Origin: a virus
Lineage: Duplodnaviria; Caudoviricetes
Direction: 5' to 3' (one strand)
IMG/VR virus record: IMGVR_UViG_3300006428_000052
Location: 1 to 53,096 of that record
DNA: 53,096 nt
Shown here: piece by piece, positions 2,998 through 48,047 of the stretch
How positions within the stretch are numbered: the stretch's first letter is position 1
Layout: each line of letters begins with the position of its first letter
Notes under the pieces: model-generated
What the model was told of the DNA's origin: nothing
The model's database searches: none
What the model saw: the letters and a program-made list of their open reading frames with translations, nothing else
Translations under genes and position numbers: made by a program

Positions 2998-3518
2998 TTG
3001 TGGTCACCTCCATATATTTTTAGTAGGTTCTTTATTGTGTCTGCGTTCTGACGATTATGATCTGCCATTCTTGAAAAGTCCTTAACTTTATATGGCGTCT
3101 GCAGGCCATTTGAAATACCAATCAAATTTGCCGTTGCATCATAAATGACTTCTTTCTTAGGGATACCAATCTTGAGCCATGACAAGGTTTCGATAAAAGC
3201 ACGCAACTCGGCGGCACTCTTACGCAGTTCTTTTGCGGCATTCTCATAATCGTCCGGTAACTTATTGTCCGTTTCTGCAATATCAACAGGATTACTGTAG
3301 TAGCAGGCATAAACTGTCAGCATGTATGACACTTTTCCGCGAATTTTCTTGTATTCCTGCAGTGGTGTTAGCCAAATTTCTTTGAGCCACTCGCTGATGG
3401 CAAAGACAAGAACGCCGGACAATACTGTTACAATAATCGTCAGAGCATACTCTGGAACGCCTGCATTATCCGCCTGCTCAACAATCACATGGAGCACATC
3501 ATTTGTCATCATCCTCAC
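2994..3518 (-). CDS. Hypothetical protein with N-terminal transmembrane helix, inserted between mod and res
   Basis: 174 aa AT-rich ORF; hydrophobic LTIIVTVLSGVLVFAI; stop overlaps res ATG. Confidence 0.75.
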   Translation of the reverse strand: MRMMTNDVLHVIVEQADNAGVPEYALTIIVTVLSGVLVFAISEWLKEIWLTPLQEYKKIRGKVSYMLTVYACYYSNPVDIAETDNKLPDDYENAAKELRKSAAELRAFIETLSWLKIGIPKKEVIYDATANLIGISNGLQTPYKVKDFSRMADHNRQNADTIKNLLKIYGGDHK

Positions 3519-3519
3519 C

Positions 3520-5406: not shown

Positions 5407-6172
5407 TGGTTGTGGCCTCCTTTATTCCAATTCGTTGCTGATTGCTTAGCAAGTAAACATACAAGTGAAGTTCATCCTCAAGCTCATCTTCCGAAACCTG
5501 CCGCGGTTCGCAAACCAATTTATAGAATAATACTTGCTTAAACTGATAGCCGACGATGTTTTGATATTCAATCTCCTTAGTAATGACTTTATCAATTGCT
5601 TTTTCAGTTAAACTGATATGATATTGGAACGATTCTCCAACATTTATGGCTTGATTTACTTTGTTGTCCATTGGATTTGAAATTCTCCCAAAGCCCTGTT
5701 GATAGCTAACGTTTGTCGCTATTCCTTGCCCAATATTTTTAATATTGACTACTGCCTTAGAGCCGTTAAGTGTGTAATGACTTTTCTCAAATTCCACGAA
5801 GGTGCTGTTTCCTTTTTCTGTATAATGCTGCTTGCTTGCGATGGGTACTACAGATTCAATTACGAAAAATGGAGTTAATGTATTTGCCGCTTCATAATTA
5901 ACTTGTGATGCTTTATGTCTTTCATTTTGTTTGTACGCAACAAATCCTAAAAAAGTAGTACCAGCAAAAGCAAGAAACGAACCATAGAATGACAAAACAT
6001 CCTTTGCATCCCATAATGTCTGATAACCTGTACCCGTCTTGTAACACTCGTTGATTATAAAAGGTACAGACAGAATAATGACAAGTCCAAAAATCCAAAC
6101 CCACCATCTCTGATGCCATGGTTTGCGCCAGGCAAAGAACCATTTTATATCATGCTTTTTCTGATTCTGCAT
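5393..6172 (-). CDS. Hypothetical protein with two N-terminal TM segments, inserted between DUF4391 and mod
   Basis: 259 aa AT-rich ORF; GGAGG RBS; overlaps both neighbours. Confidence 0.75.
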   Translation of the reverse strand: MQNQKKHDIKWFFAWRKPWHQRWWVWIFGLVIILSVPFIINECYKTGTGYQTLWDAKDVLSFYGSFLAFAGTTFLGFVAYKQNERHKASQVNYEAANTLTPFFVIESVVPIASKQHYTEKGNSTFVEFEKSHYTLNGSKAVVNIKNIGQGIATNVSYQQGFGRISNPMDNKVNQAINVGESFQYHISLTEKAIDKVITKEIEYQNIVGYQFKQVLFYKLVCEPRQVSEDELEDELHLYVYLLSNQQRIGIKEATTNDNT

Positions 6173-6869
6173 GGCATGTGGCCTCCAATCTCTTAATCTC
6201 CATATTGATTTCCACCTTGCGGTTGAACTGTGTTTCCTTTTTCAGCTCCGCACGCAGGGCTGCGATTTTGGCTTCCGTGGCCTGCCGCTTTGCCAGCAGC
6301 TCCCGCGCCTGCTCGCCGGTCAAGTTTTCGCAATTATGAATTATGCATTGTGCATTATGAATTGAAATCCTGTCCACCAAGTCGCTGTACAGCTCATAAA
6401 AGTTGCCGTGCCGCAGCGTCCGGATGTCCAGCTCCTCACGCAGCGCTCCAAACTCCGCACTGCCCATCCACCCGGTGCAGACCGGCTCCTCCAGCACGTT
6501 CTTCTCGCTATCGTTCTGGCTGCTGCGCTGGTGCGCCGCCCAAAGCTGCGTCTGGTTTTCGCACTGCAGCACCAGCAGCATGGGGTACGGGATGGTACGC
6601 ATGATGATCTCGGCAATGCGCCGTTCTCCGGCCTGCCGGGTCAGCGCCACTTCGATAAGCTCCACCTCGCCATACTCCCGCGCGGCGTCCTTGTAGGGTT
6701 TTACAAAGCAGTTGTCGGGTTTGAGGGAATACCGCCATGTGATTTTCTCAATGCCCTCGGAAAACAGCTTTTTATCCGCCGCCGAGAGCACGCCGTTTTC
6801 ATAAAACAGCTTCTTATAAATAACATTATCCACCTTGCAGGCGGCAGGAATATGCAGCGCGTCGTACAT
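6150..6869 (-). CDS. DUF4391-family protein
   Basis: IYKKLFYENG, IPYPMLL, C-terminal coiled coil KKETQFNRKVEIN; canonical position between SNF2 helicase and mod. Confidence 0.85.
   Translation of the reverse strand: MYDALHIPAACKVDNVIYKKLFYENGVLSAADKKLFSEGIEKITWRYSLKPDNCFVKPYKDAAREYGEVELIEVALTRQAGERRIAEIIMRTIPYPMLLVLQCENQTQLWAAHQRSSQNDSEKNVLEEPVCTGWMGSAEFGALREELDIRTLRHGNFYELYSDLVDRISIHNAQCIIHNCENLTGEQARELLAKRQATEAKIAALRAELKKETQFNRKVEINMEIKRLEATCHAESEKA
6332..6363. repeat. Tandem heptamer repeat inside the DUF4391 gene
   Basis: AATTATG AATTATG CATTGTG CATTATG AATT. Confidence 0.7.
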
Positions 6870-6880
6870 GGTTTCACCCC

Positions 6881-9800
6881 TCATTTTAGCACTAAGAAAC
6901 TAATCAGTTCAAAATCCTCAATGCCGTCGTAATACTCCTTCTGCATGGTGGTGCCGCCCTTGCTGAACAGGCTGGCCACGCCGATCTCCTGCTTTTTGCC
7001 CACCAGATTTTCAATGGCGGTCTCCAGCAGTGCGGAGTAGGCTTTCATGTTGCTGCCGTCCTGGGTTTCGGCGTTGAACTGCGCCGCCAGCTCCGTGAGC
7101 ACTTCGCCTTGCCCGGAGCAGAGCTTTTTGTAAGCATCCAGAATCTTTTTGGCGTGGAGAAAAGAGAGCTTCACCTCGCCGCTTTGCGTGACATAGAGCA
7201 GATAATAGGGGAACAGCGCGTTCTGCTCCCGTGTCTGCGCCGCGCCGTGTACCTGCCGCAGGGTAAAGATCACGCCGGGGGACAGCTCACCTTGCAGTTC
7301 GGTCGGAATCTGCGCCACGGCGTACATCCCGGAGGGCGCCTGCGCCAGCTCCTTTTTGTGGTCTTTCAGATAGCCCATCAGGTCGGTTTTGAAGTCATTG
7401 AAGGTCATATCCGTGATGGAAATGCCGCCGGAGATGTCCTCCAGATCCACCACTTGGTTTTGCAGGCTCTTGAGCTGCTTGCGGCGGTACTCCAAGTCCT
7501 TCATCTCACGGCTGCCCTCGTCGATGACGTTTTCTTCGCCGGTGGCGGAAACATCCAGCAGCACCATGCGCCCCTGCACCCGCTGCTGCAGGTTGATGTA
7601 TTCGTCCAAATCCTGCATAGGCCAGAAATTGACCAGCTGGATGACGTCGTTGGTGGAGCCGATGCGGTCGATCCGGCCAAAGCGCTGGATGATGCGCACC
7701 GGGTTCCAGTGGATGTCGTAGTTTATGAGATAGTCGCAGTCCTGCAGGTTTTGACCTTCGGAAATACAGTCGGTGGCGATCAGCACATCAATTTCGCCGG
7801 CCACATCCGGGAATATCTTCTCCTTGTTTTTGGAGCGCGGGGAAAACAGAGTTAGCACCGTGTTGAGGTCGCTGATTTTCACCCGGCCGCGCTGACCGGA
7901 TGGGATTTTCAATGTGGTTTTATTATCGCCGCTGCCGGTCACCATGGCGGCAGTCAGGCCGAGCCCGGACAAAAAGGGCGTCAGGTTTTCATACAGGTAG
8001 TTGGCGGTATCCGCAAAGGCGGAGAAAATGACCAGCTTCCGATTTTCGCCGTTGAGGGGATTATTCACCTTATCGGAAATCAGTGTCTTGAGGTCGGAGA
8101 GCTTCTCATCCCGGTCAGGCGTCACCTGACGGGCAATCTGCAAAATCTGTTCCAGATTTGCGCGGTCACTCAAAAGGTCATCCTTCCAGCGGATCAGATC
8201 CATATCCTGCAGCAGTACCTTGACCGATTTGCCCACGGCCAGATCGTCAAGCTCCGGGTCATCCAGATCAATGTCACCGATGCTGACATCTGCCGGTTCG
8301 GACAGCATTTTGCTGTCGGCAAGGGATAGGGCATGGTCAATGCCGTGCAGAATCTTGTCCACCGTCAGAGAAAAGGAATGGATGGAGCTTTCCATGCGCT
8401 TGAGAATACCCACACGCATGAGGTTCACCAAGCTACTTTCGCGGTCGATCTGCTTAAAGACACCGCTGCCCACCTGAGCGTCATAGCGCTTGCTGTATTC
8501 CGCGCGCTTTTCCGGCAGCAGATAGGCCAGAGGTGAATAGACGCAGAGGGTCAGGCGCTTGATCATCGTGTTGACGTCGCCGATAGGCGGGAATTCATTT
8601 TTACTGTCCACACCGGAATAGAGGTTTTTCGGCGGCAGGCGTTTGGGGAACTGGCCGATCTCCGCGATGTTGTAGTATTTTTCAATGTGCTTGCGGCTAC
8701 GGGCGATGGTGATGGTATCCAGCAGCTTGAAGTAGCTTAAATCCATCATTTCCACAAAGGTGTCGGAGGTGCGCTCCTCATCCGGCAGCTCCGACCAGCG
8801 GTTAAACACCAGCTGCGCCTTGCGCAGAACGTGCTCAATGCTGGGAATACCCACCTCGGAAAACGCGTCATTTTTGCCCTCGGTGATGAAGGCAATCTGA
8901 TTCTTTATATCGTTCATCCGGTTATTGACCGGCGTTGCAGACAGCATGAGAACGCGGGTCTTAACGCCCGCGCGAATAATATCTTCCATCAGCCGCTCGT
9001 AGCGGGTGATATGCCCTTTGACGGGCGGATTGTTGCGGAAATTGTGGCTCTCGTCTATGACCACAAGGTCATAGTTGCCCCAGTTGACCGTGGCAAGGTC
9101 GATGTCGCCGCTCTTACCGCTTTCGCGGGAGAGGTCGGTGTGATTGAGCACATCGTAGTGGAAGCGATCAGCAGAAAAGAGATTCCGCCGGTCATTCAGG
9201 GTGTAAATGCTCCAGTTTTCCCGCAGCTTCTTGGGAGCCAGCACCAGCACCCGGTCATTGCGCAGCTCATAGTATTTGATGACCGCCAGCGCCGTAAAGG
9301 TTTTGCCGAGGCCGACGCTGTCTGCGAGAATGCAGCCGCCGAACTTCTCAATTTTTTCAATAATACCGATGGCACCGTCTTTTTGAAACTGATAGAGCTT
9401 GTTCCAAATCTCGGTTTCCTTGATACCGGTGCGGGACTTCATAATATGGTCTTCGGACAGCTCGTCCAGATACTGATTAAAGATGTGGTAGAGGGTGACA
9501 AAGTAGATGAACTCCGGCGTGTTTTCCTTATAGAGTACCTGTACCTGCCGGAGCACCTCGTCCTTGATATCCTCAACCGCGGAGCCATCATTCCAGAGAT
9601 CGTCAAACATTTTCAGAAACTGTGCTGTGCAGTCGCTTCCGTACATACAGAGGTTGCTGTCCGCTCGGCTGGACGGGGTCAGGCCGAGGCCTTCCGTGGT
9701 AAAATCCACGGTGCCGTTGATGGAGACAGAATCAGCTCCGTTGTCGATATAGACAAGGCGCGGCTGTGCGGAGTTTGGGGATGTAAACATCTTAATCTGT

Positions 9801-10141
9801 GCTTTTCGCTCCAGCCATTGGGCACATTCCCGCGCGACGGAGGCCTGACACATTTCATTGCGCAGTTTGATTTCGTATTGGTTGCCCGAGAGAGCCTGTC
9901 CTGCAGGGTGATCTATGTAATATTCACGGCTGGGTTCTTCCTCATTTTTGATAAAAACCGGATCAGTGAACAGCATCCGCACGCCGTCCACCTTCATGAG
10001 TTCTTTTTTTAGCTCTGCAAAGGCGTAGATGGTGAAGTAGGCCGTCATTACTGACAGCTTGGAACCTTTGCTTATATTTTCCCGCAGTTCGTCCGCAACG
10101 TTGCCATTGCGTTTATTGTCAAGCATCTTTGGTGGCTTCAT
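6881..10141 (-). CDS. SNF2-like helicase with N-terminal PLD-like domain
   Basis: 1086 aa; ADSVGLGKT, DESHNFRN, SATPVNN, SEGQNLQD, QRFGRIDRIG. Confidence 0.92.
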   Translation of the reverse strand: MKPPKMLDNKRNGNVADELRENISKGSKLSVMTAYFTIYAFAELKKELMKVDGVRMLFTDPVFIKNEEEPSREYYIDHPAGQALSGNQYEIKLRNEMCQASVARECAQWLERKAQIKMFTSPNSAQPRLVYIDNGADSVSINGTVDFTTEGLGLTPSSRADSNLCMYGSDCTAQFLKMFDDLWNDGSAVEDIKDEVLRQVQVLYKENTPEFIYFVTLYHIFNQYLDELSEDHIMKSRTGIKETEIWNKLYQFQKDGAIGIIEKIEKFGGCILADSVGLGKTFTALAVIKYYELRNDRVLVLAPKKLRENWSIYTLNDRRNLFSADRFHYDVLNHTDLSRESGKSGDIDLATVNWGNYDLVVIDESHNFRNNPPVKGHITRYERLMEDIIRAGVKTRVLMLSATPVNNRMNDIKNQIAFITEGKNDAFSEVGIPSIEHVLRKAQLVFNRWSELPDEERTSDTFVEMMDLSYFKLLDTITIARSRKHIEKYYNIAEIGQFPKRLPPKNLYSGVDSKNEFPPIGDVNTMIKRLTLCVYSPLAYLLPEKRAEYSKRYDAQVGSGVFKQIDRESSLVNLMRVGILKRMESSIHSFSLTVDKILHGIDHALSLADSKMLSEPADVSIGDIDLDDPELDDLAVGKSVKVLLQDMDLIRWKDDLLSDRANLEQILQIARQVTPDRDEKLSDLKTLISDKVNNPLNGENRKLVIFSAFADTANYLYENLTPFLSGLGLTAAMVTGSGDNKTTLKIPSGQRGRVKISDLNTVLTLFSPRSKNKEKIFPDVAGEIDVLIATDCISEGQNLQDCDYLINYDIHWNPVRIIQRFGRIDRIGSTNDVIQLVNFWPMQDLDEYINLQQRVQGRMVLLDVSATGEENVIDEGSREMKDLEYRRKQLKSLQNQVVDLEDISGGISITDMTFNDFKTDLMGYLKDHKKELAQAPSGMYAVAQIPTELQGELSPGVIFTLRQVHGAAQTREQNALFPYYLLYVTQSGEVKLSFLHAKKILDAYKKLCSGQGEVLTELAAQFNAETQDGSNMKAYSALLETAIENLVGKKQEIGVASLFSKGGTTMQKEYYDGIEDFELISFLVLK

Positions 10142-16573: not shown

Positions 16574-17050
16574 TTACATATTATACCACGGCCTGTATGC
16601 CCCGGTAATGTTGGCATAGGCCCGATTGCGCTGCATGACGCTGCCGCCGTTGGCCTGACTGGCAAGAGAGGTATTGCCCTCATAGGTCACCACGTATTTT
16701 CCTAGGACCTCCTTGACGATGCCCACATGCTCGGTGACCGTCTTGTCCTTGCCCCAGTGCATGAACAGGATGTCTCCGGGTTTATATCCAGATGTCACCC
16801 ACTGGCCGTGCGCCCTGGCATAATTGGCCAGTGCGGTGCAGCTGGCCGTCCGGACCGGCAGTGGAAGGTCTGCCCGATCAAATACCCATTGTACATAGGC
16901 CATGCACCAGGCCGCAGAAATGCCGTACTTGCCTGCGCCCCAGAACCAGTCGTTGTACTTGACCTTGTTGGAGCCGGATGGATACTCGATCACGCCAAGC
17001 TGACTCTCGGCCCACTGCAGGACGAGGGCGCGTTTCTCTGCGTTGGTCAC
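16574..17050 (-). CDS. CHAP-domain endolysin (catalytic domain only)
   Basis: AWCMAYVQW Cys, EHVGIV His, TYEGNTS. Confidence 0.9.
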   Translation of the reverse strand: MTNAEKRALVLQWAESQLGVIEYPSGSNKVKYNDWFWGAGKYGISAAWCMAYVQWVFDRADLPLPVRTASCTALANYARAHGQWVTSGYKPGDILFMHWGKDKTVTEHVGIVKEVLGKYVVTYEGNTSLASQANGGSVMQRNRAYANITGAYRPWYNM

Positions 17051-17331
17051 GAGGCATCACCGCCCGATGTGAGCTGCTTATAAATCTGATTTACTCCTGT
17101 GGCCGCCAGTCCGGAGATAATGCCCACTGAAATAGCCGTCAGCGGGTCCGTGGCCGGGAAATTAGGCAGACCGGTATACAGCGCCACCAGACCGAGAATC
17201 CCGCCCAGTGCGCCGCAAATCACCGGCAGCCATTTGTTATTGAGTGCGGTTGCCTTGGCCACCTGCGCGGCCAGATAGCAGATGACGGTAATTGCCGCCA
17301 CAGTTGCAATGCCTAAAGATGTAAGATCCAT
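17047..17331 (-). CDS. Holin (Dp-1-like)
   Basis: ITVICYL, NKWLPVICG, GLAATGVNQIYKQL; start chosen after AAGGAGG. Confidence 0.85.
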   Translation of the reverse strand: MDLTSLGIATVAAITVICYLAAQVAKATALNNKWLPVICGALGGILGLVALYTGLPNFPATDPLTAISVGIISGLAATGVNQIYKQLTSGGDAS

Positions 17332-17344
17332 GATATAATCCTCC

Positions 17345-17677
17345 TTAATCCACCAGGGTATCGCCCTGGACGTGGTAGGTCTTGCCACCGATCAGCAGCA
17401 GCGCGGTCATATCGCCGCAGTCGTTGTCTACCAGCTTGCCGTCCTCGACAAATACCTTGTCAAGGCTGCCGGTGCCGGTATCCAGCAGGCCAATGCCGTA
17501 GGCTTCGTCCGGAGTCTCGCCGGCGACGGTTTCCTCGATCTCGTCCTGCGTCAGGAGGTTGCGTTCGGGGTCCAGATACAGGTCGGAGCCTGCATCCTTC
17601 AGATCGGCGTTGGCCTGCTCCAGAGTGATCTCGCCCGTGGTGTATTTGCTCAGGATTTCATTGATTTTGGTATTCAT
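17345..17677 (-). CDS. Hypothetical acidic protein in the lysis module
   Basis: 110 aa; AAAGGA RBS. Confidence 0.75.
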   Translation of the reverse strand: MNTKINEILSKYTTGEITLEQANADLKDAGSDLYLDPERNLLTQDEIEETVAGETPDEAYGIGLLDTGTGSLDKVFVEDGKLVDNDCGDMTALLLIGGKTYHVQGDTLVD

Positions 17678-17714
17678 ATGTATTTCCTTTCCCCGGCTCT
17701 TGGCCGGAACAAAA

Positions 17715-18014
17715 TTAATTGTCTACCACCGGGAGTTTGCGGATGTCTTCCACCAGTTTAGTGACCGTCCCGTTACCTCCCAGGTTGTGGTACTCCGTGT
17801 ACATTCGGTTGACGTTATCGAGACCGTGCAGCGTAATGGAGCCCCGTTCCGTGTAGTGGTAATACGCCTGCAACACCCGGTCCCGCAACAGCGCCTGAAT
17901 GCCCTTTTCGATGGCGTGCTGCCGTTTCCATAAAAAACAAATGCCTGTTATCAACCCACCCGCAAGCAGGCCCATAGCCCACTTGACCCACCAGTCTACA
18001 ATCATTTCCGTCAC
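17715..18014 (-). CDS. Holin-like membrane protein
   Basis: One TM plus GIQALLRDR..YHNLGGNG. Confidence 0.8.
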   Translation of the reverse strand: MTEMIVDWWVKWAMGLLAGGLITGICFLWKRQHAIEKGIQALLRDRVLQAYYHYTERGSITLHGLDNVNRMYTEYHNLGGNGTVTKLVEDIRKLPVVDN

Positions 18015-18026
18015 TTTGTCGCCTTC

Positions 18027-18443
18027 TTAAATCAATCTGTAATGGGGCCGTGGTCCCTGGCCGGTCCAGTAATCCATCCAGTCAAACAGCACGATGGCCA
18101 CGCCGGCCAACAGCATCCACAGCGCCGCATACTGTGGGCAGATCTGTCCCCACAGGTTACCCCATAGCCCGGAGTAGTCCCAGATACCGAGCCCCAGCCA
18201 AACGTTGAGGATCAGCCCGGTCACTAGCTCCGCCGCGGTGATGGTTAGTCCTCCGACCAGCGCCTGCAGCCACAGCGGCATCTCCCACGGGATATGATTG
18301 TTTGCCAGGTCCAGCGGGATGCACAGCGCCGCCGCCAGCAGGATCATGCTCCAATGGGTATACCCGTGGTGGATGATCTCCAACAGGCCGTACAGCAAGC
18401 CGCCAGCGGCCCAGCGGAGGATATGGTTAAGCACTTGCCGCAC
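18027..18443 (-). CDS. Membrane protein (putative ABC-permease-like/DUF1113 type)
   Basis: GGLLYGLLE..THWSM..WDYS..NLWGQICP. Confidence 0.8.
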   Translation of the reverse strand: MRQVLNHILRWAAGGLLYGLLEIIHHGYTHWSMILLAAALCIPLDLANNHIPWEMPLWLQALVGGLTITAAELVTGLILNVWLGLGIWDYSGLWGNLWGQICPQYAALWMLLAGVAIVLFDWMDYWTGQGPRPHYRLI

Positions 18444-19074
18444 TGATGATCGCCTCCATGTTGGCCTTGAGGTCGTCCGGCAGCGTAGCTCCGTATGTAA
18501 TGGCCGGAAGCTCGTCCGCTGTGGTAATCCGCTGAGCCCATGCCCGCAGGTGGTTGCAGTAGGTCGTGTGATAGAGGATGTGTGCCACGGCCGCCTTGCC
18601 CATGATCAAGATATCTTCCGCCGAATAGACCTTGCACAGCTGCCCATCCAGATGATACGGGTACCCGGAGGCCCCGCCCTGCACAGCTGCCTGCGCAGTG
18701 GACAGGTTGATCTGATCCTCCGGCGTCAGGCTGATGTGTCCCGTGGTATCATCCGAGAGCGTGACATCACATCCGGCGATTATGGCAGCCTGTGCGGCTG
18801 CGGACAGCTCGTCCAGTTTGGCGGTTCGCACCGTCTCCAGATCAGGCCCTGCCGGCTCCGGCGCGTTGGTCAGCACCAGCGTGGTGCCGTCCATGTAATG
18901 CCGCAGATAGTCCGCCACGGTGTCTGTGCGCAGCACCATGCCATCGTCGTGCTGGAGCTGAATGGTGTCACCGATAGCCGTTGGAGTGACTTTCAGCGGG
19001 ATACGGACGGTACCCCCGCCAATAGTCGGGACGCCTGCGACGGTGACCGTCTCGCCGTTAGTAATAAGTTTCAT
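18427..19074 (-). CDS. Tail-fibre-associated protein (DUF4376-like)
   Basis: AKLDELSAA..IIAGCDV..SLTPEDQINL..YHTTYCNHL. Confidence 0.75.
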   Translation of the reverse strand: MKLITNGETVTVAGVPTIGGGTVRIPLKVTPTAIGDTIQLQHDDGMVLRTDTVADYLRHYMDGTTLVLTNAPEPAGPDLETVRTAKLDELSAAAQAAIIAGCDVTLSDDTTGHISLTPEDQINLSTAQAAVQGGASGYPYHLDGQLCKVYSAEDILIMGKAAVAHILYHTTYCNHLRAWAQRITTADELPAITYGATLPDDLKANMEAIISAASA

Positions 19075-19077
19075 TGA

Positions 19078-19416
19078 TTACTCCTTCCACAATACATAGC
19101 GGTATGTATTTCCAGCAGTGAACTGCGCGTCCGTATAAGTCCCATTTTCATATATCGTTGCTACTCCGTTAGCTACAGAGAGATATAATTGCACAGCGGA
19201 GCTTACAACGCTCGAATCTTTTCCAACGATAAATGATGGATCATTTTGTCCGGCTCACAGACCTGTGTATGTCCCTGATTGTCTAATTACATTTACATGG
19301 TCTGGAATAAATTTTAACCCGCTGACTTGAAATGAGTGCGTAGTGGACGATGGTGTGAACGTTCCGACTGCAAATTTTGCTGCACCACCGATCCTTCGCA
19401 GGGCCAGTTCACCCAT
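19078..19416 (-). pseudogene. Tail-tip paralog B with one in-frame TGA
   Basis: MGELALRRIGGAAKFAVGTFTP..TYTGL*AGQND..YRYVLWKE*; TGA at 19255-19257; N-terminus matches 19529-19885. Confidence 0.8.
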
Positions 19417-19458
19417 TGCAGATGCCTCCCCAAGAGGCCCCGCAGGGAGTAGCGAGAT

Positions 19459-19515
19459 TTACTTGTGTGTGTGTGTGTGTGTGTACATACACACGGTCAA
19501 ATGTTTATTTCTCAC
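19459..19515 (-). CDS. Leader peptide containing an (AC)10 microsatellite
   Basis: GAGGAGG RBS, GTG start, MRNKHLTVCMYTHTHTHK*. Confidence 0.6.
   Translation of the reverse strand: MRNKHLTVCMYTHTHTHK
19465..19484. repeat. (GT)10 dinucleotide microsatellite
   Basis: Read directly from the sequence. Confidence 0.97.
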
Positions 19516-19528
19516 GGACTGTTCCTCC

Positions 19529-19885
19529 TCAATCCTCGATGCAAACCGCTTGGTAACGGCCAACGAACTTATAAGTTGTAGTGCTGGAATAAATGTGTAT
19601 CTGGTCTCCGGTAATTTCCAGAGTTGGGTACAGACTGCCATAGCTGTAATTACTACTGTTTATCATAGTTCCATAGCCACTTCCTGATGCAACGTCACTA
19701 AATGTTATAGTTGCAACCGTTCCCGGAGCAGAGTACGCATCTTGCATAACTTTAAGGACGTAGATTCTACTTGGTTTAATAGTAAGGCCTGTAAAGTACA
19801 TATTAGCGTTGCTAGATCCTTGATAAACTGTTAAAACCTGTACTTTTGCGCCTCCACCCATCGCTCTCTTGGCTAACTCACCCAT
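19529..19885 (-). CDS. Tail-tip paralog A (candidate receptor-binding protein)
   Basis: 118 aa AT-rich, beta-rich ORF directly after the tail fibre; MGELAKRAMGGGAK. Confidence 0.75.
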   Translation of the reverse strand: MGELAKRAMGGGAKVQVLTVYQGSSNANMYFTGLTIKPSRIYVLKVMQDAYSAPGTVATITFSDVASGSGYGTMINSSNYSYGSLYPTLEITGDQIHIYSSTTTYKFVGRYQAVCIED

Positions 19886-19890
19886 CTATA

Positions 19891-20655
19891 TCACCTCGAA
19901 ATCACCACGGCCGCTTGGAAGTCCACGGTGGGCGCTCCATCCGGGCAGCGGGCATACAGGTATCCATCCGTATCACAAGACTCGCGGTCGATCATGGCAA
20001 AGGCTGCATCCGTCAGGGCCTGCGCATCGGCGTCCGTGCTTCCCACCGGCTCCACACGCACGTTTTTGCCGTCCGATGCCAGCAGCCCCGCAACGGACAC
20101 CGTCTGCTCATAGCACCCGGTGGTTCCATTGAGCGTCCAGCTGGCCGTGGCAAAGGTCACGGTGACGATGGTGGGCTTAGTTGCAGCTCCTACATCCGCA
20201 GCGGTGGCTCCATGCGGATTGCCGGTGGTCTGGCTGTGATCGTATGCGGTCTTTCCCCGGTCACCGCGATAGGCTGTTGCTGATGTTTCCCCCAGCGCCA
20301 GACTTTGGGAAATCTCCACGTAGGCGGACCCGCTCCAGCGATAGGTCTTGTTGGTATCCTGTGCCACGTAAATTTTTCCGGTTTCACCGAAGGCCGGAAA
20401 AGCGGCGAGATTTAAATACTCCAGCACATCGTCCACGTAGGACGGGAGCTGAGCGGATGGCACCTTTCCGCTGGAATCCAGCTCAGCGACACCGCTTGAC
20501 GCGCCTTTCTGCGCCAAAGGGATTTTGGCCGCCGCGGCGTCAGCGTTGGCTTTCATCTGCGCGTCAATAGCCGAGGTATTTTCGTTGAGTTTGGTGATGT
20601 CGGCATAGTCGGAAGTTTCCGGCAGATTCAGGCCGTAATTGTCGGTTGTATTCAT
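19891..20655 (-). CDS. Tail fibre protein
   Basis: MNTTDNYGLNLP N-terminus; GVAELDSSGKVPSAQLPSYVDDVLEY module; follows XkdU-like gene. Confidence 0.8.
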   Translation of the reverse strand: MNTTDNYGLNLPETSDYADITKLNENTSAIDAQMKANADAAAAKIPLAQKGASSGVAELDSSGKVPSAQLPSYVDDVLEYLNLAAFPAFGETGKIYVAQDTNKTYRWSGSAYVEISQSLALGETSATAYRGDRGKTAYDHSQTTGNPHGATAADVGAATKPTIVTVTFATASWTLNGTTGCYEQTVSVAGLLASDGKNVRVEPVGSTDADAQALTDAAFAMIDRESCDTDGYLYARCPDGAPTVDFQAAVVISR

Positions 20656-21191
20656 GTCAAGTCACTCTCCTTAACGTCGGCCCATGTGTGGGTTGCCAGC
20701 TCGGCCCACGTGTGGGCCTTTACGGCGTCCCAGGTGTTGTAAATAATGATGTAATCCCAATGGAGATGCGCCGGCATGATCTCCCGCAGGGCCGCCGTCA
20801 GATCGTCCATGTTGGGTGGGATGCCGATGGTGCCCACAAACTTGATATCCAGGCCATACTCTGCCGGGTGCTCCGTGACCTCCACATCGCCGTTGGAATA
20901 GCTCTCTGCCACGTTCTGGATCAGCGCCACGGTGGTGGTGCCGGCTCCGCGTAGCTTGGAGCGGATGCGGCTCCGGCGATAGGCGATACTTTTCTCCACC
21001 TCCACGGGAATGCCCAGGGCCTGCTCCCAGTATTGGAGGCCCCATGTGGCGGTATCGACACACAGCTGATCTACAAGCCCGTCACGGGCTTGCCACGCTG
21101 CCAGAACATCCGGCTCCATTGCATCCTGCAGTGCTACAAACTGGGGAGACGCCGCGTAAAAATCCGGGTACCGAGCAATCAGAGGCGTCAT
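20652..21191 (-). CDS. Baseplate wedge protein XkdU/DUF2313-like
   Basis: TATWGLQYWE, RRSRIRSKLRG, PAHL. Confidence 0.88.
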   Translation of the reverse strand: MTPLIARYPDFYAASPQFVALQDAMEPDVLAAWQARDGLVDQLCVDTATWGLQYWEQALGIPVEVEKSIAYRRSRIRSKLRGAGTTTVALIQNVAESYSNGDVEVTEHPAEYGLDIKFVGTIGIPPNMDDLTAALREIMPAHLHWDYIIIYNTWDAVKAHTWAELATHTWADVKESDLT

Positions 21192-22282
21192 GATACCGTC
21201 ACCTCCGTCAGTACCGGAACCTCGTCCGCCGCGATAGTGATATTCTCGGTGCCTCCGCCCACAGTAAGAACGGAAAAATCCTTGACGCCGGAGATGCTCA
21301 GCAGCAGATAAGACACCCGGTTATAGGACACCGTGTAGGTCTTACCCTCCATCGTCTCAAAGTCCAGATCAATGGCGTCGTCAAAGGCACTCTTCGCCAG
21401 GTCCTGCAAATAGGACTCCAGCGCCGCCTGGAAGGCTGCCTGCACCGTTGCCAGTGTGGTGGTGCCGTCTATGGTGATGGTGGCCATCACAGCCAGATCG
21501 TGAGCCGTGGCGGATACTACGGTCACGGCAGGCCCCACGGGGCGCTCCTTCTCGATGTAGGCCACTGCCGCCGCTCTCACGGTCTCGTCCACCGGCTCCA
21601 TATTCTGGGATGCCAGGATCACCTTGACCGTGCCTGGACCGTCCCACTTGCTGACGATGCGGGCCGCGCCCACACCGTCCACGCTCGCCGCCCACTGCTG
21701 ATAGTGATAGGGATTTCCGGAGGTCGGTGCCCGGCGCAGTTGGTTCTGGAGCCGAGACAGCAACGCTGCGTCCGTCTCGGCGTCCGTCCCGCCAGTGGCC
21801 GCCCCATTGGCGTACCCTGTCACGCCGCTGTAGTTTTGCAGGGCGGTCACGATCTCCCCCGCCCCGATGTTGTAGGCGTCCCCCACTTCTGCCGCTGTGA
21901 GCGTCCCTGTGGCCGTTCCTGCGGTTATGGTGGCGTCCGCGTCAAGTGTAAAGGCAAGTCCCGCCTGCGTATAGTAAACAGCACCGGCGGGCACCGTGGA
22001 CCCGTCCGAGCCGGTAAAGGTGATTGTGCAAGCTGCCAAGGTACCTGCCTTGCGGGTCAGGCCAAAGACGGCCGCTTGTTTGTCGATGTACTCCCCGGAC
22101 GTCTCGTCCAGATAAAACATGGGGATCAGAGCGTCCATGCTGTGATAGAGGTTGTAGATTTCCAAAGCCGCCGCGCTGAGCACGTCATTGGCAAAGCTGC
22201 CCTCCCGGGTCTGCAGATCGCTGTTGGTCAGCCGGGCAAGCATGTCGCTCTTGATGCCTTCAACGGTAATATCCTCAAACAC
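21188..22282 (-). CDS. Baseplate J-like protein (XkdT-like)
   Basis: TREGSF, GGTDAETD, SGNPYHYQQWA, GPGTVKV. Confidence 0.92.
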   Translation of the reverse strand: MFEDITVEGIKSDMLARLTNSDLQTREGSFANDVLSAAALEIYNLYHSMDALIPMFYLDETSGEYIDKQAAVFGLTRKAGTLAACTITFTGSDGSTVPAGAVYYTQAGLAFTLDADATITAGTATGTLTAAEVGDAYNIGAGEIVTALQNYSGVTGYANGAATGGTDAETDAALLSRLQNQLRRAPTSGNPYHYQQWAASVDGVGAARIVSKWDGPGTVKVILASQNMEPVDETVRAAAVAYIEKERPVGPAVTVVSATAHDLAVMATITIDGTTTLATVQAAFQAALESYLQDLAKSAFDDAIDLDFETMEGKTYTVSYNRVSYLLLSISGVKDFSVLTVGGGTENITIAADEVPVLTEVTVS

Positions 22283-22697
22283 TGATACTCACCTCCCCGT
22301 AAATCGTCACGACGGTGCAGTTGATCGTCAGCTGATCACCGGCAAAGGACACGTTGATGTTATCCACGGATGAGACATAGGGATTGATCTCCAATGCCTC
22401 CCGGATGTATCGGGCCGCCTCGCTTTGCTTGATATCGGTGGTGTAAGCCTGCCCGATCAGGCTTTCCGCTTCACAGCCAAAGTCCCATGTGTAAATCTCA
22501 TGCCGGAAGCGCACCGTGTGCAGCGCCTTCCAACACCAGACCTTCACCGCAGCGGCCCCGGTGACCTCCACCGGCTTCCCGCCGGAAAAGATCGGGCGGT
22601 TGTTGGTAAAGTCCCAGGCAATTTCCCGGCACAGCGGCAGGCTCTCAACCGCCGGCGTCTCCACCTCCGGCTGGATGATGGGAAAAATCTGCGTCAT
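22275..22697 (-). CDS. Baseplate protein XkdS/DUF2634-like
   Basis: EIAWDF, KALHTVRFRHEIYTWDFG, TIYGE. Confidence 0.88.
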   Translation of the reverse strand: MTQIFPIIQPEVETPAVESLPLCREIAWDFTNNRPIFSGGKPVEVTGAAAVKVWCWKALHTVRFRHEIYTWDFGCEAESLIGQAYTTDIKQSEAARYIREALEINPYVSSVDNINVSFAGDQLTINCTVVTIYGEVSISV

Positions 22698-23056
22698 GTC
22701 GCCTGCACCACCTTGTCAATAAGATAAAAGGTCTGATCATCATCCGTCAGCAGCAGTACCGTATCCCCGGCTTTGAGTACGGGCTCCCGCACTTCTATCT
22801 CGGCCTCGCTGCCGTCCACCGCACCGGTGGAGCAGGTCAGCCCGGACAGCGTCACCGGCTCCGTATGCCCCTTCAGAAGTCGGGCACTGATATAGATGCG
22901 CTCTGCTTCCTGGGGCGTCCCCTCTACGTTCAGCGTGAGAGGGCTCGTGGAAAGGACGGTGCCACAGGTCATCCGGAGTGCATCCGTTTCGGCCTGTTTG
23001 GCTCCCTCGGTACGCATGAGATTGCGCAGACGGGTATAAGGATTGCCCTGCATCAT
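22694..23056 (-). CDS. XkdR/DUF2577-like tail spike protein
   Basis: GTVLSTSPL, LKAGDTVLL, FYLIDKV; start after AAAGGA RBS. Confidence 0.8.
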   Translation of the reverse strand: MMQGNPYTRLRNLMRTEGAKQAETDALRMTCGTVLSTSPLTLNVEGTPQEAERIYISARLLKGHTEPVTLSGLTCSTGAVDGSEAEIEVREPVLKAGDTVLLLTDDDQTFYLIDKVVQAT

Positions 23057-23069
23057 TCTGTCCTTTCCG

Positions 23070-23086
23070 GTGTCCGAATCGGACAC
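23070..23086. repeat. Dispersed 17-bp palindrome, copy 1
   Basis: GTGTCCGAATCGGACAC, intergenic. Confidence 0.95.
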
Positions 23087-23089
23087 CAT

Positions 23090-24076
23090 TTATTTTGTCG
23101 GGACGCTCCCGGCCTCCTGCTTATCCATGAGATTGCGGAAATCCAGCGTCAGTTTCGCCTGATAGATTCCATTTTGCTTGGTGTGGCTGTCCGACAAGAT
23201 CCAAAAGAGCCCGTCGGTACCCGTCGTGGGCTCGTGGACCACTACCGTGTTGCCGGTGATCAGCCTGGGATTGCCGATGCACTGCGCCGTGATGGTAGTT
23301 TTAATGCCATTATCCTCCAGCAGCTGCTTTGCAGTTTTGGCGGAGTCCTCGCTTTTGCTGGCCTTAATGGCCTCCTCCATCAGCCCATACAGCGCTGCAT
23401 AACCCTCCGGGCTCTTGTAGGTGGCAATCCGCTTGTAATCGTCGTCGTATATCGCCACGGAGTTGACCATATCCGTGATGGAGTCGATGCTGGAGCAGTT
23501 CAGCAGGTTATTTCCGGGAATCAGTCGCAGAGTGTCGGCGTTTTTTTGCTTAATTACTACGTTGAGCAGGTCGCCGGTAAACCGCACCTGATACTGTTTT
23601 CCCGTCTGCTCCGCCGCCAGCGTGTAAAGCGTCTGGATCACCTGATAGATCGAGGAGCCCAGAAAATTGCGGCTCAGCGCCACACCGGTGGCAGCCAGAG
23701 AGCCCACGGAGATCCCATACTGTCGGCATAGTTGCTGGGTGATAGCCTCCGGAGTCTGTTTGCGCACCGGCAGATACACCTTGTTGCGTTTCAGATAAAT
23801 TCCCCAGTCGTAGGACACCGGAGATAAAAACTGCTGCGAGCTGTCCCGGCTCCGTTCAAAAACACGGCCGGAGAACAGCAGATTGGTATCATGGTACAGC
23901 CGCACCGCGCCGCCCAAGTCGCACAAAGCCGTCGGAAGAATATCGGCTGTCAGTTGCCGAGCGCAGTCCGCATAGCTTCCGGACCAGGCGAGGGATTTAA
24001 GGTAACTCGTGATGTCCGCCGACTTGGCACCGTCCAAACTCCAGGTTAAAAGGCGAAAGGCGTCGTTAAAAGCCAT
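23090..24076 (-). CDS. Tail hub protein (XkdQ/YqbQ-like)
   Basis: WSGS..CARQL, YDWGIYLKRN, FWILSDSHT. Confidence 0.88.
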   Translation of the reverse strand: MAFNDAFRLLTWSLDGAKSADITSYLKSLAWSGSYADCARQLTADILPTALCDLGGAVRLYHDTNLLFSGRVFERSRDSSQQFLSPVSYDWGIYLKRNKVYLPVRKQTPEAITQQLCRQYGISVGSLAATGVALSRNFLGSSIYQVIQTLYTLAAEQTGKQYQVRFTGDLLNVVIKQKNADTLRLIPGNNLLNCSSIDSITDMVNSVAIYDDDYKRIATYKSPEGYAALYGLMEEAIKASKSEDSAKTAKQLLEDNGIKTTITAQCIGNPRLITGNTVVVHEPTTGTDGLFWILSDSHTKQNGIYQAKLTLDFRNLMDKQEAGSVPTK

Positions 24077-24088
24077 GCTTCCGCCTCC

Positions 24089-24730
24089 TCATAAATTGCC
24101 CTTGTCGGTGATGGTGATCCGCTGTCCTACTCGGATCAGATTGGCGTTTTTAATGCTGTTATAGCTGGCCAGGCTGGCGTACAGCGTCCCATCCCCGTAA
24201 TACTTGCGACAGATGCTCCACAGCGTTTCTCCGGATGTCACAATATGGACGGTGGTTGCCTTCGTGGACGTAGCGGCCACCCGCCCGGTGTTGCCGGTGG
24301 AAGTCTTTTCTGTGGTTTCCATGCCCAGATACCGGTACCGCCGGAACGTCAGTTTAACCGTCACATCGTTGGTGCCGTCATATTCGCCGTAGATCACCGG
24401 ACCCAGCAAGACAGGATAGGTCACAGAGGTACCCGGAATGATCAGCCGGAGCACGGTTCCAGCCAGACTCCAGCCCACCAGCTTTTCCACGGTCACATAG
24501 GGACTTCCAGACCATGCGGCATCCGTATAACTCCGGCTTGACGTGGGGAGCAAAAACTCCATCTGCTGGTTAAACAGCTTCTCCAGGCCGGGGAGATTGA
24601 CCTCTCCGGCCTGGGCCATGTCCAGAGCTTCCACATTCCGTCCGGACTCAAACTCAAATTGAGATGGCGTGACGGGCAACAGCATCGCCTCGCCCGTTTT
24701 GGTATTGATCAGAGTGATATTGCGCAGCAC
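24089..24730 (-). CDS. LysM-containing tail protein (XkdP-like)
   Basis: LPVTP N-terminus; C-terminal LysM GETLWSICRKYYG..NANLIRVGQ. Confidence 0.9.
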   Translation of the reverse strand: MLRNITLINTKTGEAMLLPVTPSQFEFESGRNVEALDMAQAGEVNLPGLEKLFNQQMEFLLPTSSRSYTDAAWSGSPYVTVEKLVGWSLAGTVLRLIIPGTSVTYPVLLGPVIYGEYDGTNDVTVKLTFRRYRYLGMETTEKTSTGNTGRVAATSTKATTVHIVTSGETLWSICRKYYGDGTLYASLASYNSIKNANLIRVGQRITITDKGNL

Positions 24731-24741
24731 GTCCTCGCCTC

Positions 24742-26763
24742 CTAATCCTCTCCAGTCATCGCGGATCGTTCCAGCTTGGTCACGATCGCCTCCGCGATGG
24801 CGTCAACGTCGCTGTCCTGGCGGACGGTAAAATTTGCGCCAGCAAAAGAGACCGCTACACCGCCGCTGCCGCCCTTCTGACGGGCCTGGGCCGCTGTCAG
24901 AACCTTTTCGCCCTGGTGGAGCAGCGCCGGATAGTTGTCATAGGGCACATAGTCAAGCCCGAATGCATCGCTGTTGGCCCCACCACCGGCTTTGTACGCA
25001 TTGAGAATGTCGCTGGCACTAGACTGGCTGTTGATCGTCGGACCGAAATCGCTGGTGTTATTGGAGCTCATAGCAGCCGCCCGTCCCAGGGTAAATTGAT
25101 TACCAAGTTCATATCCGGCGTCATAATAGTCTGTGTTCAGCGCAGAATCGTCCCGGACGGCTCCGATCAGAGCCTTCTGGCTCTCCAGCTCCAGCTGCGC
25201 CCCTTCACTGGCATTATAGTTGTTGATGCCCTGAATCTGAGCCCTGGCGAGGATTTCTCCCATTTTCGCGGCATCGCCGGTAGCCTGGGCGGACCGGTAC
25301 TCATTGGAGCTCATGGCGGTCGTCTCCGCGTCTCGAATGGCCTTCTCCTTGGCGTTTTCCAGGGACGCCTGCCACGCGCCGATCGCCGAGTTTGCCTCTT
25401 CCATGCGGGTTCCGCTGGAGCCGGTCAGATAATCCTGCTGGGCCTGGATGCCCTTTTTACGCTCCTCGTTGTAGCCTTGGCCCATAGCAGCGTCCATAGT
25501 ATCCTGTGCGTCCTGCAGGTTGTTTACCATGGCATCGTAGGTGGATGCCAGTTTATCCGACAATCCGCCGAAGGTCTTGTTGATATAATCCAGGATGGCC
25601 TGGGCGGCTGTGTCACCGGAAATTTTCCCTTTGGTCACCATGTCGGCAATACTGCTCTTTTTGGCCCCGGTGGCGTCGGCTAAGGCCTGATAGACGTCTA
25701 CACCACGCTCGGAAAAGTAGTTGAGATATTCTGCCGTTGCCTTTCCGGTGGTGCGCATCTTGGAAAGGCCGGATATCAGCGTGTCCACGTCGGAGCTGTT
25801 GAGATCCAGTCCCGCGGTGGCGTCGGAAAGCGTCTGCAGCACTCCGAAAACCTTGTCCGGCTTGTAGGTGTTTAGCAGCTTTTTGGAGTAGCCCGTGATC
25901 TCGTCATAGGAATAGTTGGTGTCCTGGGCCATTTCCTGCACCTTGTTGAGATAATCCTTGGCCGCCTGTGCGCTGCCCAACCGCTGGGCAAAAGCAATCT
26001 GCGTCTGCTCACGGGACCCGGCAATGGTGCTGCCATTGGAAAGGCTGGTGCTCTGCTGCTCCGTAACAGTGTTGTAAGCGTCCTGCACATAGGATTTAAA
26101 GGCATCGTCCTTGCTGCTCTGATTGGCTGTGACGCCCTGCAGCAGTCCGGACGCTCCGCCCACCGCCGCGCCGATGGCCACACCGATTGGATTGCCGGAT
26201 AGAGCGCCGATAGAGCCACCGGAGATTGCGCCGCCCAGAATACTGGATAGCAGCCCTCCCGTCTGACTGCCGGCGGAACTGGAAATCAGGTAGTTGGCAT
26301 ATTCCTGCACACTGCTGCCAACCATCTGCCCCAGGCCCGCCGTCATCAGCCCTTTGAGGAGACTGCCGGACGATCCGCCGGACTCGTTGCCCAGTTTGCG
26401 CATTTGCTCCTGGGTGTTGCTGATCTCCTTCCGGGTGCTGCGGGACGCCTCTTCATAGGCTTTTGCCGCGTCCGTCAGATCCTTGTACTGCTTTTTCGCG
26501 TTATCAAGGTTCAGGCGGCTCTGCTCGTCCCCGTTTGCCTTGAAAGCGGCCTCCGCCTCCTTCAGCGCCTTCTTGGCCGCCGTAACCTGGGTAGAGGTCT
26601 CGGCAAAGGATTTATTAAAACTGTCGTTTTTCTTACTCAGCTGCTGGATGCGGGTTTGCAGCACCTCAAATTCCTTGTCCAGGGCTTTGCTGTTGCCCTG
26701 GACGGATTTCATGGTGCCGCTGATCTCGTCGTATGCTTTGAGTACAATGGATGCCTCTGACAC
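24742..26763 (-). CDS. Tape measure protein
   Basis: 673 aa Ala/Gly-rich helical protein; GLDYVPYDNYPALLHQGEKVLT. Confidence 0.9.
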   Translation of the reverse strand: MSEASIVLKAYDEISGTMKSVQGNSKALDKEFEVLQTRIQQLSKKNDSFNKSFAETSTQVTAAKKALKEAEAAFKANGDEQSRLNLDNAKKQYKDLTDAAKAYEEASRSTRKEISNTQEQMRKLGNESGGSSGSLLKGLMTAGLGQMVGSSVQEYANYLISSSAGSQTGGLLSSILGGAISGGSIGALSGNPIGVAIGAAVGGASGLLQGVTANQSSKDDAFKSYVQDAYNTVTEQQSTSLSNGSTIAGSREQTQIAFAQRLGSAQAAKDYLNKVQEMAQDTNYSYDEITGYSKKLLNTYKPDKVFGVLQTLSDATAGLDLNSSDVDTLISGLSKMRTTGKATAEYLNYFSERGVDVYQALADATGAKKSSIADMVTKGKISGDTAAQAILDYINKTFGGLSDKLASTYDAMVNNLQDAQDTMDAAMGQGYNEERKKGIQAQQDYLTGSSGTRMEEANSAIGAWQASLENAKEKAIRDAETTAMSSNEYRSAQATGDAAKMGEILARAQIQGINNYNASEGAQLELESQKALIGAVRDDSALNTDYYDAGYELGNQFTLGRAAAMSSNNTSDFGPTINSQSSASDILNAYKAGGGANSDAFGLDYVPYDNYPALLHQGEKVLTAAQARQKGGSGGVAVSFAGANFTVRQDSDVDAIAEAIVTKLERSAMTGED

Positions 26764-47292: not shown

Positions 47293-48047
47293 AGGAACCG
47301 CCCTCCCCTCTCAGGCTCTCGGACCTGCTGCCGGGGAATCTCGTCCGGCTTCAGCGGGTAGACCGTAAGCCAGTTGCTTGTGGTGGCCTTCTCCAGCAGG
47401 CGGAGCTTCAATTCTCGGTTCCCGCCTGAGAGTTTGTCCAGCTCACGCAAAATCCCGCTCATGGCCTTGACTGTCTTAACCGGCTTTTTGTTTGCCTTCT
47501 GTCGGTTTTCCAGCAGGCCGAGGATAGCATCCTGCAGTTCCGCATCGCCGTCAGAATACTCGGAAACCCGTTCCAACACCTCCGGGGATATAGGGGTATT
47601 CTTATTATTTTTCTTTTTATTTGTATGGTCATCATTTTTGAGGATACCGTCTAATCTCTTTTGAGGGGACGTATCATCATTTTTGAGTACACCTCCCGAT
47701 GAAGTATCTACAGGGTCTTCAGGAGGGTCTTCTTGGGCCAGCTCCTGCCCGCAAAATATACGTCTCTGGATAATGTCTCCAGCATTACCATACCGGCGAA
47801 TCATCTTCACCCGTACATGGCCAGCCTCTTTCAGCTTAGAGACCAGCCGCGTGATAGTCGGCTCGCTGCACTTGCAAATGTGCATGAAATCTTCATTGCT
47901 GGCATAGCAATAACCGTTTGCATAAGAAAGCCGATAAATTTCACCATATAGCAGTTTCGCTGTAGCGGGTAAGCTGTCGTCATAGAGCACCTTTGCCGGT
48001 ATCAGGGCAAACTGGCCGCCGTTGGTTCTGTCAACAGGCACTGTCAC
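47289..48047 (-). CDS. Phage replication initiator (N-terminal HTH)
   Basis: AKLLYGEI..GYCYASN; internal iterons. Confidence 0.88.
   Translation of the reverse strand: MTVPVDRTNGGQFALIPAKVLYDDSLPATAKLLYGEIYRLSYANGYCYASNEDFMHICKCSEPTITRLVSKLKEAGHVRVKMIRRYGNAGDIIQRRIFCGQELAQEDPPEDPVDTSSGGVLKNDDTSPQKRLDGILKNDDHTNKKKNNKNTPISPEVLERVSEYSDGDAELQDAILGLLENRQKANKKPVKTVKAMSGILRELDKLSGGNRELKLRLLEKATTSNWLTVYPLKPDEIPRQQVREPERGGRFL
47601..47687. other. Probable replication origin within the initiator gene
   Basis: TCATCATTTTTGAG at 47629 and 47674, related CTCTTTTGAGG between them; adjacent AT-rich tract. Confidence 0.7.

Follow-up and report, generated by a model that had tools for sequence, protein, structure and literature searches.

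The DNA analysed here, referred to as the window, is the whole 53,096 b of one IMG/VR provirus record and represents a complete temperate, myovirus-like phage. PHROG scans covering 45 different ORFs among the 61 listed detected an integrase (52065-53096), repressor and replication genes, the terminase, portal, protease and major head protein, as well as the sheath, tape measure and baseplate genes. The genes from tail to lysis are tightly packed on the minus strand, where 14 of the 15 junctions in 16574-26763 measure at most 37 nt, the exception being a spacer of 112 nt between two small paralogous genes, here called A and B, which are located between a tail-fibre gene and a gene for a DUF4376 protein. 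The features of this region are listed below, from the baseplate towards the lysis genes.

22282-21188, minus strand: gpJ-like baseplate gene (PHROG)
21191-20652, minus strand: tail protein gene (PHROG)
19891-20655, minus strand: tail-fibre gene, 254 aa (PHROG minor tail and tail fibre families), with its stop 5 nt before the ATG of A
19529-19885, minus strand: gene A, 118 aa (ORF), first 42 nt with 55% GC and the rest with 41% GC
19524-19528, minus strand: leader Shine-Dalgarno sequence GGAGG, directly after the stop codon of A and 8 nt before the GTG at 19515
19459-19515, minus strand: leader ORF MRNKHLTVCMYTHTHTHK, 18 codons at 10 repeat units, from GTG 19515 to TAA 19461-19459
19465-19484, minus strand: perfect (AC)10 tract, read from the sequence (19464-19484 in the TRF output)
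19417-19444, minus strand: predicted 12-bp hairpin with a 3-nt loop, -15.7 kcal/mol (MFE fold)
19078-19416, minus strand: gene B, a paralogue of A with 112 codons, of which codon 54 is an in-frame TGA (19257-19255)
18427-19074, minus strand: DUF4376 protein, 215 aa (PHROG 'tail fiber protein'), whose Shine-Dalgarno sequence overlaps the stop of B
17050-16574, minus strand: endolysin gene, located after the A/B region, downstream of the DUF4376 and membrane genes

A 113-aa ORF at 17388-17047, just before the endolysin gene, has a hydrophobic sequence and, judging from this and from its location, was regarded as the holin gene. In 29 viral and 20 genome loci, the DUF4376 gene is kept beside a gene that encodes a membrane protein of 138 aa. 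Among the relatives of the DUF4376 protein in the 20 genome loci, the best has 67% identity, and since the MAGs that carry these relatives are mostly named Dysosmobacter, Evtepia, Agathobaculum or Butyricicoccus, the host of the phage is probably a member of the Clostridia, an assignment to be read as a lead only. These relatives conserve only the C-terminal two thirds of the protein; its N-terminal part (18987-19039) had 14 listed differences from metagenome contigs in 53 nt, seven synonymous and seven non-synonymous, and constitutes a second variable module adjoining B.

One end of the provirus record (1-10141 of the window, minus strand) holds a defence island detected with PADLOC, in which a type III restriction enzyme (1-2997, open at the window end), a type III methyltransferase (3520-5406) and an HKD+Snf2 helicase-nuclease (6881-10141) were recognised. 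The mod genes of type III systems are often repeat-switched in other bacteria; the repeat census of the window revealed no perfect repeat tract in this island. An imperfect heptamer array (AATTATG, 4.6 copies, 84% matches) lies at 6332-6363, inside the island ORF 6150-6884. At 47629-47687 there is a 22-nt unit present in 2.6 copies (72% matches), which overlaps an ORF (47289-48047) assigned to PHROGs for replication initiation or a DnaD-like loader, and these repeats are possibly origin iterons.

Genes A and B and the slot behind the fibre gene

The proteins encoded by A and B have in common the N-terminus MGELAxRxxGGxAK, encoded by the GC-rich first 42 nt of each gene, and these 42-nt 5' ends form a direct repeat with 71% identity. 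The initial annotation had described this shared N-terminus and had confined the likeness of the two proteins to it; the first part stands, while the likeness extends further, with 17 of 45 residues identical over the N-termini (E 1e-7) and 25% identity over the whole length. The base composition of the region is mosaic: the first 42 nt of A and B have 55-57% GC and the hairpin part 64%, compared with 59-61% in the phage backbone, and the bodies of both genes, as well as the leader part of the spacer, have 41-43%.

Gene B, which had been taken as intact, is not so in this provirus, where the TGA at codon 54 splits it into ORFs of 53 and 38 aa. Sludge metagenome contigs of three runs from three studies (X1, X3 and X8) have a C at position 19255 of the plus strand, which restores a TGG (Trp) codon. 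In comparison with the window, B in these contigs contains an in-frame GGG insertion, five synonymous and four non-synonymous changes, and A in metagenome contigs differs by two synonymous changes and one non-synonymous change. Given that the contigs of three studies read TGG and that the changes are of the coding type, B is, on this sequence comparison, a real gene under coding constraint that was broken by a nonsense change in this provirus. The option that TGA is read as an amino acid under a different genetic code was rejected, since TGA ends both the fibre gene and A.

Neither A nor B was assigned to a Pfam, PHROG or NCBIfam family, and A had no PADLOC family; lowering the Pfam threshold to E values of up to 1 yielded nothing for the two proteins but one unrelated match at 0.16. 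The small proteins XkdW and XkdX of PBSX, encoded behind the tail-fibre gene, are presumably positional analogues of A and B, and their Pfam families matched neither protein. No homologue of A was recovered by tblastn of phage records, by a word search of 5.8 billion proteins, or in viral and genome contigs, collections from which records close to the window had possibly been left out. Five HMMER matches for A among 1.84 billion representative proteins were discarded as homologues: one was an identical 45-aa fragment, and the other four, long or repeat-containing proteins of which the two inspected are internally repetitive, were judged compositional noise. Likewise, the protein word search and the metagenome contigs gave no homologue of B (these collections may also omit records close to the window), and a profile built from A and B had no match in viral contigs. 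A feature search of a protein atlas returned unnamed clusters and a single family, DUF7483, at 0.87, to be taken as a lead only. The AlphaFold model of A was all-beta with a pLDDT of 44.8, an unreliable model too poor for a fold search, and neither a signal peptide nor a membrane segment could be read from the sequences of A and B.

A is separated from the fibre gene by 5 nt and B from the DUF4376 gene by 3 nt, and from this position and packing a role of A and B at the tail can reasonably be inferred. The name of tail-tip genes given to them earlier agrees with their place in the tail module, but no family, fold or homologue speaks for a tail role. The neighbouring fibre protein ends in a C-terminal domain (residues 160-254, encoded by 19891-20175) that was modelled with a pLDDT above 90 and that has 19 homologues with 58-85% identity, borne on N-terminal parts of varying length in proteins of 180-399 aa. 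The fold matches of this domain were only middling and comprised H-type lectins and end domains of phage receptor-binding proteins (Z 5.5, rmsd 3.0, 78 residues); the best structural likeness, a weak one, was to the H-type lectin Helix pomatia agglutinin (Z 5.5).

In the nearest relatives, the slot of A and B is occupied by a single small gene without a repeat (L085 and L084) or by none (L086). The locus L085 has a low-GC gene of 134 aa with the N-terminus MAEGFIVRRGGGNA (MAEGFIVRRGGG..), L084 has a small low-GC gene with the N-terminus MGKGIILRRG, and L086, a close relative, has no small gene in this place. The likeness of the L085 and L084 N-termini to those of A and B was perceived by eye and with a regular expression only, and BLASTP gives no support to it. 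The fibre C-terminal domain of L085 is common with that of the window (44% over 85 aa). A supposed resemblance to A and B of the fibre C-terminus of L086 and of the small protein of L085 was dropped, as it was unsupported by BLASTP. The locus closest to the window in the DUF4376 (80%) and membrane (86%) genes, L083, has no fibre gene upstream; at 2785-3970 it contains an ORF with a C-terminal baseplate-J match (27% over 132 aa), followed by a low-GC ORF of 82 aa, and it resembles a rearranged or truncated element.

The metagenomes X1 and X3 each include one contig that matches the window up to 19529 and continues with unlike sequence, as well as another contig that carries A; as read from these contigs, a different gene is joined to the same spacer exactly at the stop of A. 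In both metagenomes, the contigs of B break off at 19389, within the conserved 5' end of the gene. The contig breaks at 19529/19530 and 19389/19390 point to break points of cassette exchange, or to a longer array in the relatives.

The spacer between A and B

The (AC)10 tract is unique in the window, with no match in 100 shuffles, and is the only dinucleotide repeat of at least 5 units in the 53,096 b. Among 883,434 b of related phage loci, no dinucleotide repeat of at least 6 units was detected, the only exceptions being L001 and L002, which are copies of the window itself. The tract is uninterrupted and, as a perfect repeat, long enough for the frequent slippage expected of a simple-sequence-repeat contingency locus. 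Perfect tracts of this kind are hypermutable, and poly-CA/TG tracts in phage M13 reportedly frameshift at high frequency, a result ascribed to Levinson and Gutman (1987). Searches with DNA patterns from the spacer had no match in viral contigs or in metagenome contigs, a pattern of the flanks that allowed 8-38 bases (4-19 units) between them matched no metagenome record, and no contig spanning the tract was present among the listed sludge-metagenome assemblies. Against Rfam, the spacer gave a mir-297 noise match on the TG tract only.

The leader ORF starts 13 nt past the stop of A (GGAGG, 8 nt and GTG), and the placement of its Shine-Dalgarno sequence and start codon is like that of a normal gene junction. 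GGAGG is weak evidence for a start in this window, where 23 of its 155 occurrences precede listed gene starts and 132 do not; furthermore, the predicted fold also pairs the leader GUG, open frames of some 15 codons are not uncommon, and the features of the leader and the switch were chosen after the sequence was seen. With 10 units, the leader is in the frame of B and is separated from it by the TAA.

The position of the leader stop was recomputed for 6 to 14 units. A TAA at -44 from the ATG of B ends the leader with 7, 10 or 13 units, a TGA at +6 inside ATGGGTGA, overlapping the start of B, ends it with 6, 9 or 12 units, and a TAA at +101, inside B, ends it with 8, 11 or 14 units; in silico, a change of one unit thus moves the stop from -44 to +6 or +101. 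The overlap of stop and start is absent from the 10-unit state of the window and appears only with 6, 9 or 12 units. The TGA at +6 arises incidentally from the codons for MGE, and A has one at its own start as well.

In the predicted fold, the hairpin encloses the Shine-Dalgarno sequence of B (GGAGG, 19429-19425), with GCCUCU paired to GGAGGC, and ends one base before the AUG at 19416; the TAA that ends the leader at 10 units lies 14 nt before the hairpin, which begins at 19444. The start region of B had the second lowest folding energy of the 61 gene starts (-20.2 kcal/mol), a value that is only marginal against base shuffles (z -1.9, 5% of 2000), and the fold of the 151-nt spacer had a z of -2.66. 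Immediately 5' of the tract is GTGTGTATGT, which is able to pair with it, and the predicted pairing of GUGUGU with the ACAC tract places the latter in a long, imperfect hairpin extending across the leader. Between 8 and 13 units, the predicted fold of the spacer is nearly constant (-39.6 to -40.8 kcal/mol), and only the loop grows. The hairpin before B is devoid of a T run, the stem being followed by AUGGGUGAAC, and no terminator-like site was found on the minus strand; between 18300 and 21000, this strand contained neither a sigma-70-like promoter nor an intrinsic terminator. The spacer was also considered as a promoter and rejected, as this interval lacks a promoter-like site and the TA-rich hexamer closest to the TTGACC of the spacer is 33 nt away, a distance exceeding that of a promoter spacer. 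Given that the number of units leaves the predicted RNA structure unchanged and that no promoter or terminator consensus occurs on the minus strand, the reading frame is likely the sole carrier of a signal, if the tract matters.

This anatomy agrees in its essentials with the initial annotation, which had read from the letters a leader ORF with its own ribosome-binding site containing (AC)10 (located exactly at 19465-19484, behind GGAGG, 8 nt and GTG) and a GC-rich hairpin pairing the GGAGG of B (the 12-bp stem of -15.7 kcal/mol that encloses it). The stops that it had assigned were all reproduced by the recomputation: at 10 units the TAA at 19461-19459 upstream of the hairpin (-44 from the ATG of B), at 9 or 12 units a TGA overlapping the start of B (+6 in ATGGGTGA), and at 11 units a leader that runs past this start out of frame (TAA at +101).

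A candidate leader-frame switch and its alternatives

Slippage in the (AC)n tract may switch B through the frame of the leader, a plausible candidate mechanism to which we give somewhat less than an even chance. Replication slippage would alter the number of units by at least one and hence the frame of the leader. With 7, 10 or 13 units, as in the window, the leader would stop 14 nt before the hairpin, so that B would be masked and its expression off or low, whereas in the other two frames ribosomes would melt the hairpin as they translate across it. At 6, 9 or 12 units, termination at the TGA of ATGGGTGA could be followed by a restart at the AUG of B, which would be on; with 8, 11 or 14 units, ribosomes would run 101 nt into B out of frame, with an uncertain effect. 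Such a switch predicts an output of B with a three-unit period, dependent on the leader start and on the hairpin. In this provirus any switch would be vestigial, controlling only a fragment of 53 aa, because B has a premature TGA where the related contigs have TGG.

Phase variation of host range through translational coupling, as proposed in the initial annotation, is consistent with the required anatomy, which is present; on the other side, full-length B is broken here and the role in host range is positional only. Coupling alone is also a narrower reading than the anatomy suggests, given that by the logic of the pil1 system described below both out-of-frame states would open the hairpin. The wider proposition that a temperate phage of anaerobic Clostridia hedges its bets, with slippage in the leader repeat deciding for each virion lineage whether the small tail-associated B joins the constant A, we regard as doubtful. 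If true, the host-recognition end of the phage would be randomised without invertases or retroelements.

A different account, which also seems to us rather unlikely, views the tract as a neutral microsatellite in a recombination junction, where slippage would have expanded the GTGTGTATGTACACAC palindrome within a non-coding scar that separates two horizontally acquired cassettes. The 'leader' would then be what remains of the start of a gene since replaced, the hairpin would constantly damp B or have no role, and unit number would be without a selected effect. This account is in keeping with the mosaic GC content, in which 5' ends of 55-57% and a hairpin of 64% alternate with gene bodies and a leader of 41-43%, with the different sequence found at the stop of A (19529) and the break of the B contigs at 19389 in X1 and X3, with the decay of B by a TGA in this provirus, with the presence of the repeat in no relative, and with the modest statistical support for leader and hairpin. 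It requires, however, a rare event to have occurred just before a masked start, as long dinucleotide tracts number one in the window and none in the other related loci; and if the leader is translated at all, melting of the hairpin would depend on the frame by ribosome mechanics, whether selected or not. Should the switch not be real, the locus shows the swapping of relative-less variable genes behind a fibre gene by way of a conserved 42-nt 5' end.

The function of the gene under the candidate switch could also be other than supposed, and there is a minor but appreciable chance that A and B belong to the accessory 'moron' genes, with functions such as exclusion or host modification, and that the late operon provides a permissive slot for them, in which case any switch would not be about host range. 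The lack of a tail family, fold or homologue for both proteins, their low GC, typical of acquired genes, the well-folded domain in which the fibre itself already ends, and the locus L086, which does without such a gene, would be expected under this explanation. It is harder to reconcile with the packing of A and B inside the tail module, with junctions of 5 and 3 nt, with two proteins devoid of signal peptide or membrane segment, and with the small low-GC genes found in the same slot of L085 and L084, whose N-termini are alike by eye only, without BLASTP support; L085, moreover, shares the fibre C-terminal domain (44% over 85 aa).

That tract length tunes B irrespective of the leader frame, through RNA structure or processing, or through transcription (spacing or Z-DNA), appears very improbable: the GUGUGU-ACAC pairing does place the tract in a long imperfect hairpin, and there is a precedent in a transcribed repeat that, in the available part of the source, acts via a 5'-UTR hairpin and RNase III (PMC12721329), but fold and energy barely move for 8 to 13 units (-39.6 to -40.8 kcal/mol), and 18300-21000 of the minus strand has no promoter-like site, with TTGACC 33 nt from a TA-rich hexamer.

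Comparison with known systems

Phages Mu and P1 generate progeny of mixed host range by inverting tail-fibre segments, the G segment of Mu with Gin and the C segment of P1 with Cin. The locus studied here is similar to them in that a constant tail-fibre part is followed by two variable genes that are alternatives to one another, and differs in that A and B are in tandem on the same strand, without flanking inverted repeats or an invertase. The best inverted repeats, of 13-23 nt with 74-92% identity, do not flank A and B, and the PHROG scans of 45 different ORFs among the 61 listed included no invertase. Nor was a reverse transcriptase present among the PHROG-scanned ORFs, and the sole repeat of A and B is their 42-nt 5' end with 71% identity, which separates the locus from diversity-generating retroelements.

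The opening of a ribosome-binding site by translation of an upstream frame is known from phage MS2, where the replicase site is closed by structure until ribosomes in the coat frame open it. Coupling of the MS2 type is fixed, whereas access to the start of B would depend on a mutable frame.

Repeat switching described so far for phages concerns homopolymer tracts, mostly within genes, as far as the available part of the source covers it: contingency tracts in T2 and T4 genes, and polyG tracts in the receptor-binding genes of Fletchervirus (Sorensen et al. 2021, cited in the same source; bioRxiv 10.1101/2025.10.21.683753). From what that source describes, the present locus has in common with these the slippage-prone tract and the prospect of mixed progeny, some of those tracts being in host-recognition genes; they mostly frameshift a structural ORF, whereas here a dinucleotide tract in a spacer ORF would act on the start of the next gene. 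No case of a phage repeat in a leader ORF was found in open-access papers and preprints. If the leader-frame switch is true, it would be the first contingency locus of a phage to act on the initiation of a neighbouring gene instead of frameshifting a structural gene.

In Haemophilus influenzae, the heptamer repeat in the 5' UTR of hmw1A acts, according to the available part of the report, with RNase III in a processing-dependent manner, and its effect is graded with repeat length (PMC12721329). Both loci have a transcribed intergenic repeat in an RNA hairpin, upstream of a surface-protein gene in the case of hmw1A; the graded effect described there contrasts with the predicted structure here, which is insensitive to unit number, so that the frame is the plausible signal.

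The closest design is that of the pil1 operon of Streptococcus gallolyticus (Danne et al. 2014, PMC3894217), in which, as far as the article was available, 39 bp separate the end of the short leader from a hairpin, and with repeat numbers that are out of frame the stop falls inside the hairpin or past it, in which case ribosomes melt the stem and expression is on. In both systems, a repeat whose unit length is not divisible by three lies within a short leader ORF that has its own Shine-Dalgarno sequence, and in both the short leader stops before the hairpin and the other frames stop within or beyond it, here at -44 against +6 and +101. The hairpin of pil1 is described in that article as an intrinsic transcription terminator with a T run, whereas the one before B has no T run and masks a ribosome-binding site; pil1 has 22 GCAGA units that control the transcription of a pilus operon in a bacterium, and here a dinucleotide lies in the late operon of a phage; and the pil1 switch is an experimentally tested one, the present locus a candidate. 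As its hairpin is without a terminator T run, the locus does not belong to attenuation of the pil1 type, but would work similarly at the level of translation. If true, repeat switching in phages would also include a design with a leader ORF, one that is known from a single pilus operon of a bacterium.
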